Part shown: in pieces, positions 20,790-38,225 of the stretch
How the letters are laid out: every line of letters starts with the position of its first letter
Position numbering within the stretch: position 1 is the stretch's first letter
Assembly (NCBI GenBank): GCA_002269645.1
Contig: NIVC01000738.1
Span: forward strand, 186,001 to 250,000
DNA from: Macrostomum lignano
Lineage: Eukaryota
Direction: 5' to 3'
Length of the DNA stretch: 64,000 nucleotides
Notes under the pieces: generated by a model
What the model saw: the letters and a program-made list of their open reading frames with translations, nothing else
What the model was told of the DNA's origin: nothing
The model's database searches: none
Translations under genes and position numbers: made by a program

Positions 20790-22870
20790 GATGCAATGGA
20801 GAAAACAGATGTTTGAAATACTAGAAATGTATGGTTAGCAACAACACTATTCAGTACAATGGCAGCATCAGGGATTCCCCATATGATAAATATTATCCAC
20901 AGATATAACTGCGAGCAAATGCAGATAGTGTTCTATGCAAACAGATTGCTCAAAAAGTAAAGCAAGATGCAAGAGAGAAAAGTATATGTTGGCAAAAGCA
21001 ATTGTAGAGGAAGCTGTCAGTAGTCATATTGATGAATTCTATCTTCAAGTGCCATATATAAAGCACCTGGCAGGCCAAGCCAATTGACTTCAACAGAAAG
21101 ACCAGAATTAGCACCTACCAATATTTGTATTTAAGCTAACTAGAGACAATATCCCACAACTATTTCTATATGCAAATGTGCCTATTGCATGCATAGGCAA
21201 GAGGCAAATTATTTCAAGAAAGGAACAGCTAATAGCACTTGGCCATTGCACCCAATGGTTCCTTGAACCATAGTGGTATATTTAATGTTTTCAAGGAGAT
21301 ATTCATATGGCTATATAGCACTCATGGTATTCAAGCTAGTAGTATATAGTGCATCAGTCTTCTAGCCAATTTTTAATATGTCTAGTTAAGCAAAACTAGA
21401 TTATGTGGCTATATTTGGCTCCTTGAAATGCTTGCTTGGTTCCACATATGATGCATACTATAATAGACTTTGAGGCAGCAACATAACAAGTACATTCTCA
21501 AACATTCTTAAAGATCATTGTCAATAGCTGTGTATTTCACCAAGCTATCTATAATCACATTGAGCTATTAGCTCTAATTTAAGCATATTCTATTAGACAT
21601 AGCTATGCAAATATTGTGTTGCCAACTTGAAGCACTACTATATCTGCCATTTGGAAAGATAAAAGCTACATTTAAAGCACTCTGACCATAGGCAACAATG
21701 CTATAATTGACTGAGCTATGTAATTACGAGGGGTGTCCAAAAAGTAGTGATACTTTTAACTGTAGCTCTTGTTCTATAGCTTCCTGTGATTTAAAATTTT
21801 ATGAATTGATAGCGGCAAATCTCTTCTACAGACTGCTTTTTTAATTTTTAAAATTGATACCAGAGAACAAAAGTTATACCCATGAAAGTAAGAGTACCTA
21901 TATCATAGAGTTACACAAATTATAGGCTTGTCCAACCTATCAGTGATCTCTCTAATGGTCATTTGGGAGTCCTTGTCAAGAAGATCCAGAATGGAGTCTG
22001 CCAGTACATCAGGTTGATGAACGTATGGCTGCCCCGTCCGATGCTGATCTGCCAAGTCAGTCCTTCCCTCACTGAACTGCTCCATCTATCGATAAACTAT
22101 CATTTTGCTGACCACAGAGGATCCATGCGCAGAGCAAAGTTTTGCGTGAATTTCTGAGGCACTATGGCCAGCACCCCAAAGAGTGAAGATAGTACTTTGC
22201 TGAGCAACAACTGAGTGCACATCCATGTGTGTTGTCGAGTATGGGCAATGAAATCAATTGCAAAATGCAAGCTCCTCTGTTTGCAAGTAAAGTAATGAAT
22301 TTAATGCTTTATTTTTCTGCGCATGATTCTGTCCATAGACAGATTTCAGTTAGTCACAATGAGCATCATTTTGCAATTGGGCTTTGGTATTGCTTAAACA
22401 AGACATTTATCGATGCCTTCTTAATGAATAAGTGCAAAAGTCAACTAATTTTGATATAGTTTGTGTAACTCTATGATACAGGTACTGTTACTTTCATGGG
22501 TATAACTTTTGTTCTCTGGTATCAATTTTAAAAATTAAAAAAGCAGTCTGTAGAAGAGATTTGCCGCTATCAATTCATAAAATTTTAAATCACAGGAAGC
22601 TATAGAACGAGAGCTACGGTTAAAAGTATCACTACTTTTTGGACACCCTTGTATATTGACTAGACATAGATATGGCTATCATACCTAGTCTTGTCTATAA
22701 AGTTGCTATTAGCATAGCAATAGATTGATAGAATAATGCTATTAAAAGTTGACACTCTATTCAATGCAAGCATATTGATATTTGCATGAACATTTTTACA
22801 CTGATTAGCCTCTTGGCAGAGCAGACTCATATTCTGAGACTGCAAATTTGATAGCTGGTATCTCTTCCTA
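20790..22870 (+). pseudogene. Mutator-like (MULE) transposase relic, heavily C->T/G->A mutated, interrupted by a mariner derivative
   Basis: GCC AAT TGA CTT CAA CAG AAA GAC CAG (21079) reads as ANRLRQKDR; DFE (21466) to C-x-FH (21529) has the 21-codon spacing of the MULE DDE core; after the insertion AAT AAT GCT ATT AAA AGT TGA CAC (22732) reads as NNAxEGWH. Confidence 0.75.
21727..22651 (-). mobile_element. Internally deleted mariner (Tc1/mariner) element
   Basis: About 165-170-bp TIRs (CGAGGGGTGTCCAAAAAGTAGTGATAC...), TA on both flanks; N-terminal HTH transposase remnant 22226-21903 (MDVHSVVAQQSTIFTLW...SASEIHAKLCSAHG...VYR*MEQFSEGRTDLADQHRTGQP...TIREITDRL). Confidence 0.9.
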
Positions 22871-25800: not shown

Positions 25801-26130
25801 TGAATGTGAATTGAGGTGGGACGGAGAAAAGAAAAGAAAGCTAATATTATTTTCTGTCGGCGGTCTTGAAACGATTCTCGTAAAAATCTCAACTTCAAAT
25901 TGCCGCCGTCCGTAACTTGGCACTCGTAAAGCCGGAAAGCTGCACGAATTTGATCAGGTTGATTTTCTCCTTTGATACTCCGACTGCCGGGTCCCCAATT
26001 CCGAGGGGAGGGTAGTCGTGTTCGAGGTCGAGCGGTCTTTAGCAGGCACCGTCGTTCAGCTGGGTCCTCAGACACCGTAGGTTCATTCAATGTACGTTGA
26101 ATCACTTAGTTGCTTACTATCGTAGAGTAG

Positions 26131-26141
26131 CGCTGCCACCA
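26131..26141 (-). other. Primer-binding-site-like motif TGGTGGCAGCG (complementary to a tRNA-Leu 3' end) at an LTR-like boundary
   Basis: Plus strand CGCTGCCACCA matches the ...CGCTGCCA-CCA 3' end of tRNA-Leu(AAG-type); minus-strand AATAAA about 150 nt upstream (26289-26294). The LTR end reads ATTACGG rather than the canonical CA. Confidence 0.5.
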
Positions 26142-26695
26142 CCGTAATTTCGTATTACGGAACGTTGAGATCTCAGAGCTCGTTCGGAGTTGAGATTTGA
26201 TTTGGTTATTTTACGCCCCACTGGGCAAATGACTCAAGATAAACTATCGGGGCTGCGATTAATTAATTGAATAGAATGAGTTAAATGTTTTATTGGCCGT
26301 CACAGAGACTACTTGAGCTGGTATTGATGATAGCAATTATTAATGATAATAATAGTAATAATATTATCCGAACGCAGGCTACGGACAAAAGAATAATCCG
26401 GCTGGGCCGAGGTGCTGGATAAGAATGGTTATTTGTTAATAAATAGGGAGCAAGCTAATAAGGTCCGGTGGTATTACCGAATCAAACAAATAAACTAAAC
26501 TAAACACTAGTAGCACGTACGAGAAAACGAGAACTAATACGAACACTAAACAAGGTTTGAAAATGGTGCGGCCTAAACCGGGCTAAATAGCATAAAAATA
26601 GCATAGCATAACCTGCTATTTTTATATAAAAATATTAATGAATGGCATAACCAGAAAAAAATGCAACACATGGGGCGACGGATGGGGCAGGGGGC

Positions 26696-27879
26696 GGGCC
26701 TATGAAATTTGCTTGCGAGAAGTTTGCTTGCCGAAGTCTGCTTGCCGAATTTTGCTTGCGGAATTTTGCTTGCCGAAGTCTGCTTGCCGAATTTTGCTTG
26801 CGGAATTTTGCTTGCGGAATTTTGCTTGCCGAAGTCTGCTTGCCGAACTTTGCTTGCGGAATTTTGCTTACCGAAGTCTGCTTGCCAAACTTTGCTTGCG
26901 GAATTTTGCTTGCCCAAGTCTGCTTGCCGAACTTTGCTTGCGGAATTTTGCCTGCCGAACTTTGCTTGCCGAGCTTTGCTTGCCGAACTTTGCTTGCCGA
27001 TCTTTGCTTGCCGAATTTTGCTTGCAGGAAATTTGCTTGCGAGGTTTGCCAGCCAAAGTTTGCGGAACCTTGAAGAACCTATTATTGAGCTCTTGTATTT
27101 CTAATTTTCATTTTCTAAGATTCGTGGAAGTCGCCTATAGTGTTATGATTTTGTATGAGGGTATGGCGGATTATTAATTACATTTTATATACTAAAATAT
27201 TATTAGTATATGCATTATTATACGTTAGCATCACTGCAATTATCATACCTGCTCAATCGTGCTGAAATCAGAAACTACAAAGATTTATACTATTACCGAT
27301 TCCTATGTCTAAATACCTATACTAAATCTCTAAGCATTCTATATACTAAATTCTTAGAATGAAACTCTATAAGCCTAGTTTCAAAGCTTTTATAGTGTCA
27401 AGTCAGTTTACGTCGACCCTGATAAGAATCCACTTGCAAAGCATCTGTAGTAAGTAATAATTGACTGACCAACTTTACAAGCAATCAAAACAAGCAAGCA
27501 AACAAGAAAATAATTCTGCAAGTTAAAACCTTGCGATTGTGTGATTAAAATTTCGCAAGCAAAGTTCGGCAGGCAAAGTTCCTGCAAGCAAAGTTCGGCA
27601 GGCAAAGTTCCTGCAAGCAAAGTTCGGCAGGCAAAGTTCCTGCAAGCAAAGTTCGGCAGGCAAAGTTCCTGCAAGCAAAGTTCCTGCAAGCAAAGTTCCT
27701 GCAAACAAAGTTCCTGCAAGCAAAGTTCCTACAAGCAAAGTTCGGCAAGCAAACTTCAGCAAGCAAAATCCCGCAAGCAAAGTTTGGCAAGCAAAGTTTG
27801 GCAAGCAAAGTTCGGCAAGCAAAATTCCTTCAAGCAAAGTTCGGCAAGCAAACTTCCCGCAAGCAAACGTCGTACTCCC
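26696..27879. mobile_element. Non-autonomous foldback/Mutator-type element with tandem-repeat TIR arms
   Basis: Perfect 9-bp TSD GCAGGGGGC (26687-26695 and 27880-27888); ends GGG...CCC; arms are inverted arrays of TTTGCTTGCCGAA-type units (26707-27060 versus 27550-27870); AT-rich core. Confidence 0.88.
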
Positions 27880-28162
27880 GCAGGGGGCAAAGGGTGGGGC
27901 GAAGGACGGGGCAACGGATCGGAAAACGGAAAAACGGGACAAAACCCCAGGCAAACCAAAGGGTGGAAAAGAAAAGCCAACGGACGGGCCAACGGAAGGG
28001 GCAAGGGATGGGCCAACAAGGGGACTGAGAGGACCACAAAAAGGGCCATACACCGGAAAGAAAATACGTCATTGTTGACTGCCGATCGCTCAAGTGGTAG
28101 CTCGCCCTACCACATGCGCGGTGGCACCGCGCGCTTGGCGAAGAAGCCAGGCGTTCCGGATG

Positions 28163-28771
28163 CTACTGTCGCCGTCCGCGAGAGGCGCGTCTGCCGCGGC
28201 CAGATGGGCGGGCTTCGCGGTCAGCTCCGGCCGTGCTGGCAAGGCGGCCCTGGCGGCACAGCTGAATGATGACTGGCGGCACGCCTCGTCCTAGGGCGGC
28301 GGCGTACTCTACCCCCAGGCCTATGATGGCGCTAATGAGGCCCAACTGGGCGCCTGAGGTTTCAGCTTGGACCCGCGAGCAGAGTAGGACAGCTGCCATC
28401 TCGATAGCCCATACCGCGGTTGCCGGTCCGTATTGCCGGGCCAGGTCATTCCAATTACGGCAATCGCTCGTGTGATGAGCTCCGTCTCTGTCATCTAGCT
28501 CCCAAAGTAGCAGCTCTGACAGCTGCTGCGCACATTCAGTATCCAGCACAGCCTCCCTTGGCGCCAACGGGGCCGCGTCCAAAAACTCGTTCAGCCAGGA
28601 GCTTGGGCTATTTGACGGCGCTTGTACGACGGGCGGTTCGGGGAAAGCGCCGGCGAGGTCAATCTGGTCTAGCAGCGCCGGGTGTCGTGGCGGTTCCTCA
28701 CGGTCACGGGCTTCAGCGTCTAATAGCGCGGATGGTGAACCGGCGCCGTTAATCATCGGATAATCCGACAT
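28163..28771 (-). CDS. Hypothetical 202-aa protein, possible death-domain-like fold (residues about 78-162)
   Basis: Uninterrupted ORF; GCCATG context; TATTTAA about 113 nt upstream (28884-28890). Pattern QQLSELL..LDD...RNWNDLARQYG...AIE..LL...LISAIIGLG..YAAAL resembles death-domain helices, judged by eye only. Confidence 0.5.
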   Translation of the reverse strand: MSDYPMINGAGSPSALLDAEARDREEPPRHPALLDQIDLAGAFPEPPVVQAPSNSPSSWLNEFLDAAPLAPREAVLDTECAQQLSELLLWELDDRDGAHHTSDCRNWNDLARQYGPATAVWAIEMAAVLLCSRVQAETSGAQLGLISAIIGLGVEYAAALGRGVPPVIIQLCRQGRLASTAGADREARPSGRGRRASRGRRQ

Positions 28772-29989
28772 GGCGATTGAGAGAAAACTGGGTCGAGACC
28801 GGACTTGCTTAAAACTATAGGCAAATTAGTCCGCAGAGCAGAAACGAAAAACAGGTTCAATAAGCAAGTTAGGAAATGGGGCCTTAAATACCAGCCATCA
28901 GATGGACAAAGCTAGGGGCCGTCACCCCCATGAACTCTACTGCGGCACTCAGAGGTGGCGTGGGTGAGTGAAATCAAGGAGTAATAAAACAGATAGATAA
29001 CCGCGCGGCAAGGGTCCCAGTAGAATGAAAGGAATGGGGCGCCTTAAACGGCTCACACGAAACGGGTTGGCGGTTAGAAAGGGGGGCTGAATATCGCGTA
29101 AACATAAGGGCAGCATTCTCTCACTCACTCATGACTCACTCACTCATACTACATAAGGGCAGCATTCTCGCGTAGACACTGGGAACAGAGCCGAACGAGA
29201 GGCCCTAACAAAATTTCCCAGGCTTGGCATGATCAGAACAAAGAATAAACATGGGGGTCGGTTCACCTTAGATGCCCTCCGCTGAGGACCAGGCTTAGTG
29301 CAAAGGTCCGCTTGTCCCAAACGGGGCAAAAGATTGCTGGGCACCTTAGCAAAATAGTTTGAAAAAAAATTGGGAAGAGAAACCTTCAGGTTGTGATTTG
29401 GGACTGAAAGTTTCACAAATAATTCAGTGCTTTTCTCCTGAAAGCATAAGGAAGCGATGGGAGACTCTCCGTTCTTTGACAGTGTGCTAGGAAAGTTTAC
29501 AAATAAAGGGGTTTCGCAAAATGAAATTAATTGAGCAATGGTATACTGTATCGCATGCGGATAAATAATGTCGCGTTTGGTGCAGTCTTTTACCATCAAG
29601 CCAAAGGCTAAATATCAGAGCTTAGGGGTGCAGACTTAGTGTAGCGTTGGATAAAATATGAGCACAAAATTAAGCATGGGCACCAAAATGTACAACTGCT
29701 TTTATCCCTAAGCATAAATAAACAGAAAAATTGAGAAAATGCCGCTTTTTTTCCTGAAATCATAAGGAAACGACAGAAATTAACTGTTTTCGCCCTCAAG
29801 CATAAGGTCACATTAAAAGTACATTGAAACTTTGCTTTGCTTTTGTCCTGAAAGCATAAGGAAACAGAAAAAATTTGAGAAAAAAATAAATGACTTTCAG
29901 CACATTAGCAGGTGCAGAGCAAGTTTCACCGGCAATAAAATTAAAATGCGTTCGCAGACCGGACTACTAATAGTAATGCGCAACGTTAG

Positions 29990-32000
29990 CTAATTACAAG
30001 GCGCAACATTAAATTCGCTGGTAAATACCTTTAAGAATTCCACCTCCATGCCGATGTCAGGCAGATCCGGGTCGCCTTCGGCGAGCACCTCAGGATGGCG
30101 CAAGCTTGGCTCGAACAGCTGACTGCCTCGCAGATCGTGCTGGGTTGCGGCTGGCTGTTCTGGAGCGGGCTGATCGGCTGGATCGACTTCGCTGTCATCA
30201 CTCGACTCGTAGGGCAGCATTAGCCGCTCAGTTTTGCGTGGCGGCTCCTGTGGTCGGTCTGCCATCATTTGCGGCACCTTGATAATGTTGTTACGATGTA
30301 CCAACATCTCAGCCGGGCGTCCTCGTCGGGCGGTTGCCGGCTTGATCCAGTAGGCTACTTCGCCGACCTTTCTGACGACTTTGTACATACTCTTGTACGG
30401 CCGGTGGAATTTATTAGGCAGCTCTCCCAATTCGAGCTTCGGGTTGGCCAGGCAGACAAGATCTCCGGGCTGCAATTCCACGGGCTTCGGTCGGTTTTCA
30501 TAGTACTCTTCTCGGCGCTGGATCTCAGTCCTCAGTCACTGTCGTACAATTCGCTCGGTCTCGGCCAGTCTGCGCTGATGCTTGGCAATGTACTCTGGGA
30601 GATCAGCCGATACGTCCAGGCGGTCTAGGGTGTTGTCGATAGGATATCGGTAGGGCACTTCGTAGACGACATAGTGCGGCGAGAAACCAGTAGTACGATT
30701 GACGGCTGATCTTAGGGCGGTCAAAGCGGCTGGCAGCATCTTGTCCCATTGCTGATGATCTTCGAGGAGACAAGTGAGCACCTTCTTGATGTTCTTATTG
30801 CACGATTCAGCTTGTCCATTAGCCCAGAGCGAAAATGGCGGCGTCGTAGTCTGCCGAATGCCATAGACTTCGCAGAAATGTCGGAACTCGTGCCCTGTGA
30901 ACTGTTTTCCTTGATCGGAGTGAATCCACGCCGGGATTCCAGTGATCGGAAACACTTGTTCCTTTAGAAGAGTTATTATCGTCTTGGCACGCTGATTTTT
31001 CATGGCAAAGGCGAAGGGGTACTTTGACGTAGTGTCGACGTAGGTCAGTATGTACTTGTTGCCTCGGTCTGTCGGATCTCCAGTGGGGCCCAGGATGTCG
31101 ATTGCGCATCGCCCATAGATTTCGCAAACCGGGAACAACTGTACATGCGCCGGAATACGTCGCCGTCCTTTGCTCTGAGTGCAGGTCTGGCAGGAAGCGA
31201 CATAGTCGGACACTGCCTTGGCCAGGGCAGGTCGCCAGAACCTTTCGCGCACTTTAGCAATGGTGAGGTCTCGGCGAATGTGTCCGCAGTAGGGCGAACC
31301 ACGCAGGTCGGCGAACACGGTGGCGTCAAGACTCCTCGGCAGGACGATTCACGCTGTCTCTTCCTCGCCGACATCGTCAAGATGTATCACCAGCAGTCCA
31401 TCGTCTCGGATTTCTAATTGTTCATAGAACGCTAATAAATTTCGCTTGTCTCGCGTCATGTTTAGTCGCTGATTCAGCGGCGGCCTTGGTTGTCGACTTT
31501 CTAGTAGGTTAATCATCATGGCGATGGCGGAGCCAGCACGCTGATGAGTCTTGAGCTCCTCGCGAGTGACTGGCCTCGGGATGTGATCTGTTAGATTTAG
31601 AGTTCGGCGTCGATCAGTCAGATTAGTTGGGGCGGCTTCGGCTGTGGCGGCATCGTTCGGGGTCTGGAGCTCCCTCCGCATGATCGCTACTTGAACCGGT
31701 TGCCGTGTTGTTGATGTGCCCGAAGGTCGATCCTCGTCGGTGGATTCGGCGTCACTGTCACTCACTCCTGATTCGTTAGCAGATGAGGATGATGAGGCAG
31801 TGCTGTCAGCGTCGATGCTGAACCTCACCTCCTTCTTGAACTCCGGGCAGCGAACTGGATGGCAGCGGTCGTCTTTGGCTGCACTGTGGTCGCTGACCTC
31901 GTCGTCTCCAGCTAGTAGTCGGCGGCTCCTAGTAGGGCAACATGTCAGGCTACTGAAACTGGTGGGTGACCTCTGCGAGTCCTCGTAACGGCTGGCTGAT
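29990..32000 (-). mobile_element. Ty3/gypsy pol remnant: RNaseH-integrase linker, integrase and C-terminal domain (degenerate)
   Basis: GH...CQTC zinc finger; AIDILGP, YILTYVDTTSKY, IHSDQGKQF, ANGQAESCNK core; LQPGDLV..KFHRPYK..YKVV C-terminus. In-frame TGA at 31349 (likely CGA) and a frameshift at about 30535. Confidence 0.92.
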
Positions 32001-32318
32001 GGCCTCGGCTTCGTCGCCGGCGGGTGCCCTCGAAGCGGCCCTCGGATTCTCCATCTTTCTGCCCTCACAAGGTCTATGGTATCGCTATTCCTACCCTAAT
32101 TTGCAAGGGCGGGCAGAAACGCCATTTCCTGCCCGGTCTATGGTAACTCCATACATTTGAGTGTGAATCCTTTCGAATTTTCATTTCTTGCCCGCTGCCG
32201 ATGTCTGTGGTAAAAATCACGGGTTAATGCTTCGTATATGTCTCAAGTTTACTGTAATTTCAGTTTTCTCTGCTAAATATCTTGAATTTTATTAAAATAG
32301 AAGTACTAACTGTCCAAG

Positions 32319-32632: not shown

Positions 32633-33119
32633 TTGACCAGACATTTGCAGGTGAGTCATTACTCACACAAGACTAGTTTTTGTTAGCAATTTGTTCACGA
32701 TTTAAATGTAAATTTAAAAACGTCATCCTAACGTACTGAATGGCTAATCTCGTAAGTTTTTCGCGCTATACTGTATTTTCTAATTATTAGTTTACTATAT
32801 TAACTTTGACAAAATGAAAATACCATCCATCATAACGTACTAACTGGTTAATAAGTATTTTGTGTTCTTTAATTGTCTATAGTTTATTCAATGTTTCCGC
32901 TAAAATATATTCAGTTGTCTATGGCAAAAACGCGCTGTTTCTTTTACACTAAAAGGATTGAAGATTTCTTTCACATTCCTGCCCGGCAAATCGGATAGGA
33001 ATCTTCTTCTCCTTACTTAAATCATGGAGCGGAGCTGCTAGTTCTGCGTAGCCAGGTACAAATTTAGCATAATACTAGCAATCTACGCCCCCCGTTGGGG
33101 AGCCAAAGAAATGCAATAC

Positions 33120-34240
33120 ACGTTTTTTTAATAAGCTACAGGTATCCTTGAAATCTTAAAAAATCTCCTGTCAAAACTTGTCAGCCTTGAAATGTCAGTA
33201 ATTCCCCCCCCCCACAAGCTTTAACATATCAACTTCCCCCCTTGACATCTCAGCAATGCCCCCAATAAGCCTTGGAAATCTAAAAATATCTGTCAACCTT
33301 CTAACCCTAACTCTAGCCTAACCCTAACCCTAACCCTAACCCTAACCCTAGCCTAACCCTAACCCTAACCCTAGCCCTAACCCTAACCTAACCCTAACCC
33401 TAACCTAACCCTAAAGCATTGACATTTCAGTAATTCTCTCTAAGAGTCATTATTGCACTACTACAGCATTATAGCGATTCCCTGCAAGCCTCGACATCGT
33501 AGGGATTCCCAAATGCATCTCTTCACTTCGACATGAAGCTTCTTTTATTTTTTACATTACGCTTTTTTTATCAGCGATCCCTCCAATGAGGAGGCATCAA
33601 GTAATGTAATTAAAAGTTTTCAATAAACTACATGTAGCTTCTGACTTTAGCCTTGAAATCTCATTTATACCCCCGTGAGCCTTGACATGTCAGCTATTCC
33701 CCCCGTAAGCCTTGACATGTCAGCGATGGCCTCCATAAACCTTGAAATCTAAAACCCCCCCGTTAACCTTGAAACCCGATAAAATATAACCCTCAACCCA
33801 CACCTGACCTAAACCTAACTTTAACCCAACCTAAAGCCTTGAATCTCAGCAATTCTTCTCCCCTAAGCCTTGACATTTTAGTGATTCCTTCTTTAAGAAT
33901 CACAGCACCATAACGATTTCCACCAAGCTTTGACATCGTAGCAATTCCCAAAGGAATCTTTTAACTTCGACATGACTCTTCTTTTATGCATACATAGTGC
34001 TACTTTTATTTTTTACATGACTCTTCTTCTATCAGCGCCCCCCCCTGTGGCGAGCCAACAAAGAATGTAATAAAAAAATTGAGTAAAGTACATGAACTTT
34101 GAAGTAGCTTCTGACGTTTGCTTTGACATCTCAGAAACCCCCCCCCCTATAATCTCAGTTATTCTCTGTGAGCCTTGACGTCTCAGTTTTTTCTCCCCAG
34201 CCCAGCACTATAGCTGCATTTAATTTTTAAATGACACCCT
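33120..34240. repeat. Degenerate tandemly duplicated module (about 450-500 bp) with CCTTGA(C/A)ATC subrepeats
   Basis: 33460-33560 resembles 33900-34000; the second copy carries a decayed CCTAAC tract at about 33790-33835. Confidence 0.6.
33301..33414. repeat. Interstitial telomeric-like (CCCTAA)n tract
   Basis: About 18 CCCTAA/CCTAA/CCCTAG units. Confidence 0.9.
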
Positions 34241-34249
34241 TCATGTCTG

Positions 34250-36120
34250 ACATGATGCTTCTTTTATTCTACCATGATGCTTCTTAATTTTTTAAATGAC
34301 ACTTTCATTAGTTTTTAATGAGGCTTCTATGATTTTTTCATGACGCTTCTATGATTGTTTACATGACGCTTCTATGATTTTTTCATGACACTCCTATGAT
34401 TTTTTCATGACGCTTCTATGATTTTTAACATGACGCTTCTATGATTGTTTACATGACGCTTCTATGATTGTTTACATGACGCTTCTATGATTTTTTACAT
34501 TACGCTTCTATGATTGTTTACATGACGCTTCTATGATTTTTTAAAATGACGCTTCTATGAGTTTTATATGACGCTTCTATGCTTTTTACATGACGCTTCT
34601 ATGATTTTTTTACATGACGCTTCTATGATTTTTTACATGACGCTTCTATGATTTTTAACATGACGCTTCTATGATTGTTTACATGACGCTTCTATGCTTT
34701 TTACATGACGCTTCTATGATTTTTTACATGACGCTTCTATGATTGTTTACATGACGCTTCTATGATTGTTTACATGACGCTTCTATGATTGTTTACATGA
34801 CGCTTCTATGATTGTTTACATGACACTTCTATGCTTTTTACATGACGCTTCTATGATTTTTTCATGACGCTTCTATGATTGTTTACATGACGCTTCTATG
34901 ATTTTTTACATGACGCTTCTATGATTTTTAAATGACGCTTCTATGATTGTTTACATGACGCTTCTATGATTGTTTACATGACGCTTCTATGATTGTTTAC
35001 ATGACGCTTCTATGATTGTTTACATGACGCTTCTATGCTTTTTACATGACGCTTCTATGCTTTTTACATGACGCTTCTATGATTTTTTTAAATAACGCTT
35101 CTATGATTTTTATATGACGCTTCTATGATTGTTTACATGACGCTTCTATGATTTTTTACATGACGCTTCTATGATTTTTAAATGACGCTTCTATGATTTT
35201 TATATGACGCTTCTACGATTGTTTACATGACGCTTCTATGATTTTTAATGACGCTTCTACGATTGTTTACATGACGCTTCTATGATTTTTTAAATAACGC
35301 TTCTATGATTTTTATATGACGCTTCTATGATTTTTTACATGACGCTTCTATGATTTTTAACATGACGCTTCTATGATTGTTTACATGACGCTTCTATGAT
35401 TTTTAAATGACGCTTCTACGATTTTTACATGACGCTTCTATGACTTTTTTAAATGACGCTTCTATGATATTTTACATGACGCTTCTACGATTTTTTACAT
35501 GACGCTTCTATGATTTTTTACATGACGCTTCTATGATTGTTTACATGACGCTTCTATGATTTTTTTAAATGACGCTTCTATGAGTTTTATATGACGCTTC
35601 TATGCTTTTTACATGACGCTTCTATGCTTTTAACATGACGCTTCTATGATTGTTTACATGACGCTTCTATGATTGTTTACATGACGCTTCTATGATTGTT
35701 TACATGACGCTTCTATGATTTTTATATGACGCTTCTATGATTGTTTACATGACGCTTCTATGATTTTTTACATGACGCTTCTATGATTGTTTACATGACG
35801 CTTCTATGATATTTTTAAATGACGCTTCTATGAGTTTTATATGACGCTTCTATGCTTTTTACATGACGCTTCTATGCTTTTTACATGACGCTTCTATGAT
35901 TTTTTACATGACGCTTCAATGATTTTTTACATGACGCTTCTATGATTGTTTACATGACGCTTCTATGATTTTTTACATGACGCTTCTATGATTTTTTAAA
36001 TGACGCTTCTATGATTTTTACATGACGCTTCTATGATTTTTACATGACGCTGCTATGATTGTTTCATGACGCTTCTATGATTTTTTACATGACGCTTCAA
36101 TGATTTTTTACATGACGCCT
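34250..36120. repeat. Satellite, about 21-23-bp unit
   Basis: CATGACGCTTCTATGATT(G)TTT(T)A tandem over about 1.9 kb. Confidence 0.96.
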
Positions 36121-36171
36121 TTTGTCCTTCATTTGTCCTTGAATAAAAGCTTTTAATAAAAAACTTTTCAC

Positions 36172-36731: not shown

Positions 36732-36769
36732 TGGACATACAAACCTTAGAGATTTAGTATATTTAGAAA

Positions 36770-37900
36770 GCGCGCGTGCAGACAAAACTCTTGAGTTGTC
36801 GAGCTGTTTTTGGTCTTGGCCAAGTCTGAATTGCTTCGATTTTCGCCGGGTCGGTCTTGATGCCGTCTTTAGTTACTAGTTGTCCCAGATAATTTAGACT
36901 TTCTCGAAATAAATGGCACTTCTTTCCTTAGAACTTTAAATTTGCTTCTTGAACTCGCTTGAAAACTTCTTCCATATGTCGTAGATGGTCGGTGAATTTC
37001 TTAGAGTAAACCACAGATACTAAACCACAGATAGTTTTTTTATCTATGGAGTAAACAATGACATCATCCAAATAGGCAATGACACTTTTGTAGGCGATCC
37101 CATTGTAGGCGAATTGTCCGCGGTGCAGCGTGGCGAAGGCAGTCAGGTCTTGATCTTCTGGACGCAGAGGAATTTGATAGTAGCCGCTATTTAAATCGAA
37201 TGTACTGAACAGCTGGCCTCCTCCTTATTCTGGCGAATGCTTCTTGGATGTTAGGAATCGGGTACCGAAAGTACTCACACTTCTGGTTCAGGCTTCGGAA
37301 ATCTTGTACGATTCTCAGGCTTCCGTCCTTCTTTGGGATGATCACCAGCGGGGTTTTATAGCTGGAGAAGCTCAGTCGAATCACGCATTTGGCAAGCAGA
37401 TCGTCAAGCAGCTGGTCCACCTTGGGCAGGAGATGTGGTGGAATCCTTTGGGTCGGCAGTGTACAGGATCCTTGTCCTTCAATACGATGTTGTGGGTGCG
37501 ACCAAGATCGTGTGGTCCTTGGGAAAAGCTGTTCTAATACTTCTTTAGCAGCTCGATGACTTGAGTGCGCTGGTCACTGGACAGGTCCTCGCCGATATCG
37601 ATCTCCTTGATCCAAGCGTCAGGATCTTCGTCTTGGACTTGATTGACTGAGGCTTCTGGCTTCGGAAGCGGAAAGAAATGTATAGCAGTCTGAGCGGTCT
37701 TGCAATCCTGACTAGGGCATTCGCTCGTACTTTAATGGATGTTGTTCCTCGGTTAATCATCTCGATAGCGCCTTCTCCATTCGCCATTGATATTAGGGCA
37801 GGCGCGGCGTCCAAGTGCTGCATTTTGTCTTCCTTGCGGAGCCGGTTTCAGTGGCTCGATCACGGCGGGTGTCCCTTGATTTTCTTCTCGTATTTTGGCT
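36770..37900 (-). mobile_element. Ty3/gypsy reverse transcriptase remnant (degenerate)
   Basis: TPLVIIPKKDGSLRIVQDFRSLNQK, YPIPNI, DLNSGYYQIPL, AYLDDVIVYS, KKCHLFRESLNYLGQLVTKDGIKTDPAKIEAIQTWPRPKT; stops, frameshifts and deletions. Confidence 0.92.
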
Positions 37901-38225
37901 AGCTTAATCTTATTCGGGCTGACGATAGCGGTGGCATGTTTGAGCTCTCAGCCGTGTAAATTCTGCACGTGGTAGCTTCAGTTCGCGTATGGCGAAGTGG
38001 TGCGGCTGAGAGCAGTGGTGCGGCTGGGCAGTCGCTGAAATGCTCGATGCTTTCCTCCTCGAGCCCGCAGCCTCTGCAGATGCCGTCCGTCTCTTTGCCA
38101 AGTCTTTTCCTGTAGCTCGCCAGTTCGAGCGAGTGGCCAGTTCTAGCTCTCCTGGAGCTGGTGGCGTCTCCTCTGCTTTCAAAGGTGGTCTTCTTACTAA
38201 GTCTTCCTCTAAGGTGGTTAAACAA
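37900..38225 (-). mobile_element. Non-LTR retrotransposon (LINE) 3' fragment with C-terminal CCHC finger
   Basis: RTGHSLELASYRKRLG..DGICRGCGLEEESIEHF.DCPA. Confidence 0.7.

Follow-up and report, generated by a model that had tools for sequence, protein, structure and literature searches.

The locus described here raises the question of what an intact open reading frame (ORF) of 202 codons is doing among the remains of a retrotransposon. It lies in a 64,000-nt stretch of the Macrostomum lignano genome (assembly GCA_002269645.1, contig NIVC01000738.1, positions 186,001-250,000 of the forward strand), analysed as a whole and hereafter called the window. A first-pass annotation, made from the sequence alone, described the ORF (28771-28163 in window coordinates, minus strand) as a death-domain-like gene embedded in a long terminal repeat (LTR). 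Our analysis shows that this ORF, denoted ORF3, is the third gene of a young Ty3/Gypsy family, located between pol and the 3′ LTR. ORF3 keeps this position across many copies, evolves under purifying selection and is exchanged in frame between two forms, A and B, of which each of six subfamilies has its own versions; the window carries an A type.

ORF3 is located between pol and the 3′ LTR

The window element is a broken copy with a 3′ LTR only, and its limits were set by comparison with relatives. We examined 20-30 kb around 19 of the genome's ORF3 matches, 13 of which are full-length elements with long direct repeats flanking gag and pol. These relatives carry intact gag and pol upstream of ORF3; for instance, Pfam searches of the intact relative C84 recover gag and pol, the latter in the order protease, reverse transcriptase (RT), RNase H, integrase. 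The LTRs of the 13 relatives start with TGTGG[CT]AG just after the ORF and end in a CC[AG]C[CT][CT]CA motif, which places the window LTR at 28114-25812. The insertions are flanked by exact 4-bp target duplications in nine of the 13 relatives and by a 5-bp duplication in one, with no match in the other three; all six complete B-type elements have 4-bp duplications. The distance from the ORF3 stop codon to the LTR start is 48 nt in the window and 18-111 nt in 17 of the 18 measurable elements. Among the features by which Ty3/Gypsy elements are recognized, the gag/pol order, paired TG...CA LTRs with a target duplication and a primer-binding site (PBS) are all present and a polypurine tract is lacking; the placement stands despite this absence, given the pol domains and the LTRs. 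The window copy has the following layout, with all element features on the minus strand.

36766..38009, minus strand: broken remnants of pol from the protease to RT region, disrupted by stops and frameshifts and cut off from the other parts by insertions; found by tblastn with the pol of an intact relative and by blastn at 79-82%
33000..33080, minus strand: short RT/RNase H fragment
30035..32026, minus strand: 3′ part of pol with integrase (H2C2, rve and C-terminal domain), the integrase being ~96% identical to that of intact relatives
28891..30034, minus strand: non-coding spacer with TTATG[AC]TT repeat units at 29859, 29805, 29765, 29717 and 29449 and two blocks kept across subfamilies (~29300-29174 and ~29104-28918)
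28884..28890, minus strand: TATTTAA box, likely internal promoter, 119 nt before the ATG
28163..28771, minus strand: ORF3, type A allele, 202 amino acids, with a Pro/acidic N-terminus, a helical core and an Arg/Gly-rich tail
28235..28537, minus strand: conserved A core (approximately residues 79-179), a predicted five-helix bundle
28115..28133, minus strand: GC-rich hairpin directly before the LTR, at the place expected for a polypurine tract
25812..28114, minus strand: 3′ LTR (TGTGG...CACCTCA), ~1.1 kb without its insertion, delimited by the relatives' paired LTRs and motif positions; it opens with a conserved hairpin (28114-28094)
26696..27879: foldback insertion in U3, with inverted arms of 14-15-nt tandem arrays and a flanking 9-bp duplication
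26289..26294, minus strand: AATAAA, candidate LTR polyadenylation signal, likely on sequence grounds
26131..26141, minus strand: PBS-like TGGTGGCAGCG within the LTR, ~320 nt before the LTR end, which is not the PBS of the element

Part of the first-pass description holds. The ORF is stop-free over 202 amino acids, and TATTTAA at 28890, AATAAA at 26294 and TGGTGGCAGCG at 26141 are where they had been placed, as are the 9-bp duplication GCCCCCTGC around the foldback insertion (27888-27880 and 26695-26687) and the same-strand Gypsy integrase upstream of the ORF, where the pol match ends at 30035. The view of ORF3 as an accessory ORF carried by a retroelement at the env/accessory position was also correct. 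By contrast, the ORF is not inside the LTR, as had been proposed, because the paired LTRs of the 13 full-length relatives start after it; given that the window LTR begins at 28114, the two hairpins reported in the same annotation straddle the LTR start. Nor does the module end at a PBS: 12 of 13 LTRs contain TGGTGGCAGC internally, and the genuine PBS is found after the 5′ LTR.

ORF3 is constrained and has no recognizable homologues outside its family

A protein search of the genome with ORF3 yielded at least 77 matches among 92 scored candidates, with 25-60% identity. These loci are the top matches of searches rather than a census, and near-identical copies among them may be duplicated chromosome regions, the M. 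lignano assembly having been described as redundant (PMC12801592). An LTR start, R-U5 or integrase sequence was found near 65 of the 70 loci examined, so that ORF3 is no isolated piece of host DNA; the analysis also found no host gene from which it could derive, contrary to the suggestion that a transposon had mobilized part of a host gene. The recurrence check that the first-pass annotation had proposed thus bore out a multicopy ORF associated with LTR elements.

The survival of an intact ORF amid decayed neighbours, which had been singled out, is unremarkable by itself. The adjoining pol stretch (30035..32026) contains two stops per 664 codons, and a Poisson estimate from this density predicts that ~54% of 202-codon stretches would be open, making intactness weak evidence. 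The evidence for function is instead the ratio of nonsynonymous to synonymous substitution rates (dN/dS). The proportion of nonsynonymous differences (pN) is significantly lower than that of synonymous differences (pS) in all eight chosen A pairs, with dN/dS of 0.11-0.38 (0.11 for the window versus C84), and pN is also lower than pS in eight of eight B pairs, with dN/dS spanning 0.08-0.38 over the tested pairs of both types. ORF3 is under purifying selection and is not decaying neutrally. Between subfamilies, it is far more divergent than the integrase (dN 0.25-1.1 versus 0.00-0.06), at distances where synonymous sites are near saturation.

Searches for relatives of the protein outside the family were negative. 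A full HMMER scan of 1.84 billion proteins with the family profile returned only two matches, both M. lignano predictions of the same family. Pfam gave no match for the protein P0001, for any of 10 A members (at E-values up to 10) or for any of five B members; a sequence search of PDB returned nothing credible; ESM Atlas had no usable match for P0001 or for the fused protein P0005; a word-index protein search found nothing for A and a single match, from the same species, for B; and Foldseek produced nothing at an E-value of 0.001. Fold searches with the predicted models retrieved generic helical bundles only, the best matches having Z scores of 8.3 for A (root-mean-square deviation (rmsd) 2.6, 87 aligned residues) and 7.1 for B (rmsd 3.8, 102 aligned residues). 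Judged by these searches, ORF3 belongs to no known protein family.

The location of ORF3 at the position of env invites the idea of a membrane protein similar to env or sORF2 that would promote spread between cells, which we regard as extremely improbable. None of 57 cores (0 of 32 A and 0 of 25 B) contains a strongly hydrophobic 19-residue stretch above a Kyte-Doolittle (KD) value of 1.8, and the models are compact bundles of apparently soluble character; the tails and N-termini, judged for membrane segments by eye only, offer Pro/acidic rather than hydrophobic N-terminal sequences.

The death-domain assignment fares only slightly better. The motifs on which it rested are real, and the first two helices indeed recall the L..LL...D...W..LA...G pattern of host death domains, with hhalign setting the tryptophans of the A core and of the host domains together; however, the resemblance is confined to these two helices and is not kept across the family. 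A profile of 12 host death domains matched the A core with a probability of 0.8% (E-value 0.068), compared to 99.6% in a split-half control, and, as aforementioned, Pfam is silent on all 10 A members. A hidden Markov model (HMM) of the Death family detects 34 host loci in the genome, none of them at an ORF3 place. The A core, modelled by AlphaFold2 on an alignment of 23 sequences (predicted local distance difference test (pLDDT) 81, predicted template modelling score (pTM) 0.72), is predicted to contain five helices of 16, 10, 21, 17 and 22 residues, the third being 21 residues long, whereas a death domain consists of six short helices within ~85 residues. A death fold is also absent among the matches listed by three fold searches with the A model, which speak for the listed families only and whose best Z scores are ~8. 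On this model and these comparisons, a death domain is not supported, and a strongly diverged one, acting as a decoy of apoptotic or innate immune signalling, appears very improbable.

Two alleles occupy the ORF3 slot

A second domain, B, was first met as an extra N-terminal domain of one homologue and proved to match many further loci. B alone occupies the ORF3 slot in full-length young elements, with LTR pairs 99-100% identical in A-type and B-type copies alike; in the B-type element C2516, the gag and pol frames are open. For example, C1081 (A) and C195 (B) are 98% identical outside ~740 nt of ORF3, and, more generally, B replaces A in frame between flanks that are otherwise 90-98% identical. 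The exchanged part begins approximately at the start codon and finishes where the folded core ends, whereas the Arg/Gly-rich tail is common to A and B in the same frame and ends in the same C-terminal peptide in six A/B pairs.

When elements were sorted into 12 sets by their LTR start, six sets were found to hold both A and B, with the tail and LTR start 92-98% identical within A/B pairs. Trees built from 40 A and 33 B cores group the sequences of each allele by LTR set, C448 being among the exceptions. Identity between the six sets is 27-53% for A cores and 43-65% for B cores, so that every subfamily possesses an old A and an old B of its own. Several further loci deserve mention. L180 (G000:C996:358001-368000) carries a decayed B-type ORF behind a promoter region 67% similar to window positions 28990-28797 and is a possible former partner of the sub-lineage to which the window copy belongs. 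L108-L110 (C292, C1863 and C4115) encode an intact B-type ORF of 233-238 amino acids on a long branch; the surroundings of C292 and C4115 revealed neither an LTR nor a close integrase, so that this could be an orphan or domesticated copy. Finally, G000:C1081:316992-337076 (L047-L049) is a tandem LTR-internal-LTR-internal-LTR arrangement, 99.9% identical, with a single target duplication.

The relationship between A and B bears on how the dimorphism arose. In the B model (pLDDT 78), the helices start in register with those of A at an offset of 15-16, and several reference chains occur in the fold-match lists of both, some over matching ranges. At the sequence level, homology is not significant, either by hhalign (E-value 0.22) or by the best ungapped offset, also 15-16, which was equalled by 529 of 5000 shuffles. 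Given the register and the common reference chains, homology stays a lead, and A and B may be ancient paralogues, as far as the predicted models can tell.

At three loci (C616, C2108 and C1020; L010-L012), B and A are fused in frame in an intact protein of 291 amino acids. These loci belong to a distant lineage in which the integrase is frameshifted and the LTR begins differently; they are nearly identical to each other, so that they may represent one insertion. The fusion could indicate that A and B are halves of one system acting in trans, as a heterodimer, a toxin-antidote pair or a mutual exclusion device, with a subfamily persisting only when it has both types. The presence of both alleles in six subfamilies, together with the lack of any element with separate A and B genes among the 70 loci, fits this proposal. 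Nevertheless, we consider it quite unlikely: the fusion might be a single insertion in a lineage with a broken integrase, three groups have one type only, and, if A and B are paralogues, the fusion would be a tandem duplication.

Alternatively, the fusion could resemble an ancestor from which either domain was repeatedly lost by in-frame deletion, each sufficing for a shared function, in which case the dimorphism would be a by-product. Besides the existence of the fusion and the helix layouts in register, the B-type element C77 retains the end of the last A helix before the common tail. This scenario is distinctly unlikely, given that no fusion was found in subfamilies s1-s6 among the 70 loci, and that A-type N-termini of different subfamilies have distinctive motifs in common and fail to align with B (E-value 0.21), which points to an old A-only architecture.

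Primer sites and apparent growth of the LTRs

In the relatives, the 5′ LTR end is followed by a PBS of the form TGGTG(G)TCAGCTAAGTGGGA or TGGTGGCAGCGGTGGGA, which we take to correspond to tRNA-Leu; none follows the LTR in the window. In C84, C392, C422, C77, C3150, C1811 and others, the LTR end and the first 10-11 nt of the PBS are duplicated ~60 nt upstream of the real end, so that the LTRs appear to grow by absorbing old PBS sites. Such uptake, at an earlier time, may also account for the internal TGGTGGCAGC.

No polypurine tract precedes the 3′ LTR in any of 58 junctions, where at most eight of the last 15 nt are purines, and in seven elements checked over 300 nt before the 3′ LTR, the longest purine run is 5-9 nt. 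In its place is a C-rich GC tract or a hairpin (28115-28133 in the window). The stem of the separate hairpin at the LTR start varies between T-A and C-G among subfamilies. Elsewhere in the window, a telomere-like CCCTAA array (33289-33426) and a 23-nt minisatellite (34242-36128) lie between the broken pol pieces, and two 194-nt inverted arms, 97% complementary and 530 nt apart (21731-22648), resemble a miniature inverted-repeat transposable element (MITE).

Hints of expression, association with U3 and possible function

TATTTAA or TATATAA is found upstream of ORF3 in 17 of 25 elements, a count made with no shuffle control, although the surrounding DNA differs; in 16 of these 17, a distance of 88-276 nt separates the box from the first in-frame ATG. 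Three runs presumed to be RNA, each from a different study, gave window-specific contigs that cover ORF3 and U3 with no mismatch and end at 29012, 28889 and 28843, within 170 nt around the TATA box. In run X15, for which the kind is unrecorded, one contig continues to 29806. Positions 29018-29722 are uncovered in the three runs, which we do not count as evidence of silence. Taken together, the boxes and contig ends give a weak hint of a separate ORF3 transcript from an internal promoter.

ORF3 is also associated with the adjacent U3. Among same-type pairs with ORF3 more than 80% identical, both members have U3 words in common in all 34 A pairs and in 19 of 21 B pairs, and the integrase is often discordant with ORF3, as in C392 and C3581, which have integrases 98% identical in nucleotide sequence and ORF3 proteins 50% identical.

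The divergence of ORF3 is compatible with a counter-defence protein directed against host factors, either the piRNA/Tudor machinery, via the RG-rich tail, or ubiquitin ligases, as an adaptor decoy; A and B would then hit different targets and both would be kept by frequency-dependent selection. ORF3 indeed evolves much more rapidly than pol, most alleles have RG/RGG-rich tails, and several cullin N-terminal repeats are among the matches of the B model (Z 5.7-7.1, rmsd 3.6-4.8). Yet these Z scores are in the range of generic helical bundles, no tested pair has dN/dS above 1, and a host-directed protein need not be subfamily-specific, whereas similar ORF3 alleles keep one U3. We therefore regard this explanation as unlikely.

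The reading that we favour, tentatively and at somewhat less than an even chance, is that the ORF3 product is a soluble regulator working in trans for its own subfamily, expressed from a likely internal TATA promoter. ORF3 would have a short transcript of its own that terminates within the 3′ LTR. The Arg/Gly-rich tail would serve for nuclear entry or RNA binding, and the helical core might act on the cognate LTR or genomic RNA through activation, anti-silencing or export, by analogy with the Tas, VANC and CERV proteins considered below. A and B would represent two complementary or opposing settings of this function, swapped by recombination (template switching within homologous flanks) between co-packaged genomes of one subfamily, and selection would retain both.

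Several observations weigh against this reading. Its biochemical content is a prediction that no homologue informs, and in the fold searches no fold known to bind DNA or RNA was matched by either core. That the runs represent RNA is a guess, none being recorded as such, and their contig ends differ. In Mantel tests, ORF3 tracks the integrase at least as well as U3 (r 0.61 versus 0.41 for A and 0.35 versus 0.27 for B), and since ORF3 adjoins U3, their co-variation may be due to linkage alone. Both alleles occur in only six of the 12 LTR groups, with the pairings in s7, s11 and s12 failing the flank test and three groups having one type; the deep distances of A and B across nine groups are uncorrelated (r 0.14, p 0.27); and for the sub-lineage of the window copy itself, no intact B partner was found.

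It is possible, although doubtful, that the slot is a two-allele locus akin to a mating-type or incompatibility locus, in which subfamilies have kept A and B versions of a new helical regulator, exchanged by recombination at constant borders, through at least six splits because the types complement, switch or exclude each other, in elements that make their plus strand without a polypurine tract. If selection does keep both alleles in every subfamily, this would amount to long-lived balancing selection inside a mobile element. The absent polypurine tract points to unusual second-strand priming. Extra ORFs are common in LTR retrotransposons and few have a known job; this family supplies two uncharacterized domains under purifying selection. 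Natural element pairs 98% identical outside ORF3 exist in an animal with transgenesis and LTR reporter assays, making the function of ORF3 directly testable.

Comparison with known systems

A literature search, with most subscription papers outside its coverage, found no account of ORF3 or of a two-allele accessory slot. The Ty3/Mdg4 LTR families described from M. lignano carry the same species label, and the ORF3 element is probably among the families counted (PMC12801592), although a term search of the main text of that study finds no occurrence of ORF, PBS, PPT or polypurine. Here, the element is assigned at the Ty3/Gypsy level, above that of the Mag, CsRN1, Gmr1/Osvaldo and Mdg3 clades.

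VANDALs are DNA transposons. The VANC proteins of Arabidopsis VANDALs are family-specific anti-silencing proteins that diverge along with their non-coding targets (PMC5735166), and thereby recall the association of ORF3 with its subfamilies. VANC removes DNA methylation, and the abstract of that study describes no two-allele system.

Foamy viruses provide an analogy, though not a kinship, in the form of Tas and Bet, the genes for which lie before the 3′ LTR. Both are accessory genes expressed from an internal promoter, one product being an activator and the other a repressor (PMC13220597). Tas and Bet derive from one genome by splicing, whereas A and B reside in separate element copies, and no likeness in sequence or fold was found.

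Another invertebrate LTR retrotransposon, Cer1 of Caenorhabditis elegans, encodes a novel accessory protein, CERV, which acts on the RNA of its own element (PMC10309623). CERV is produced from a spliced mRNA, whereas no splice joint was seen for ORF3, for which only contigs were available; no similarity between the two was detected, in searches that did not compare them directly. In the Drosophila MDG1 group, sORF2 is, like ORF3, an accessory ORF of a Gypsy element without env, but encodes a short transmembrane fusogen-like protein (bioRxiv 10.1101/2025.03.14.642691), whereas the ORF3 cores have no such segment.

A parallel in layout comes from additional sense ORFs between pol and the 3′ LTR, a known kind of gene in LTR retrotransposons (PMC7264820). 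The plant representatives are env-like, some with transmembrane segments, whereas the ORF3 cores are apparently soluble and come as two alleles per slot. Nevertheless, ORF3 resembles these ORFs in having the same position and orientation, in being present in most copies, and in being conserved.

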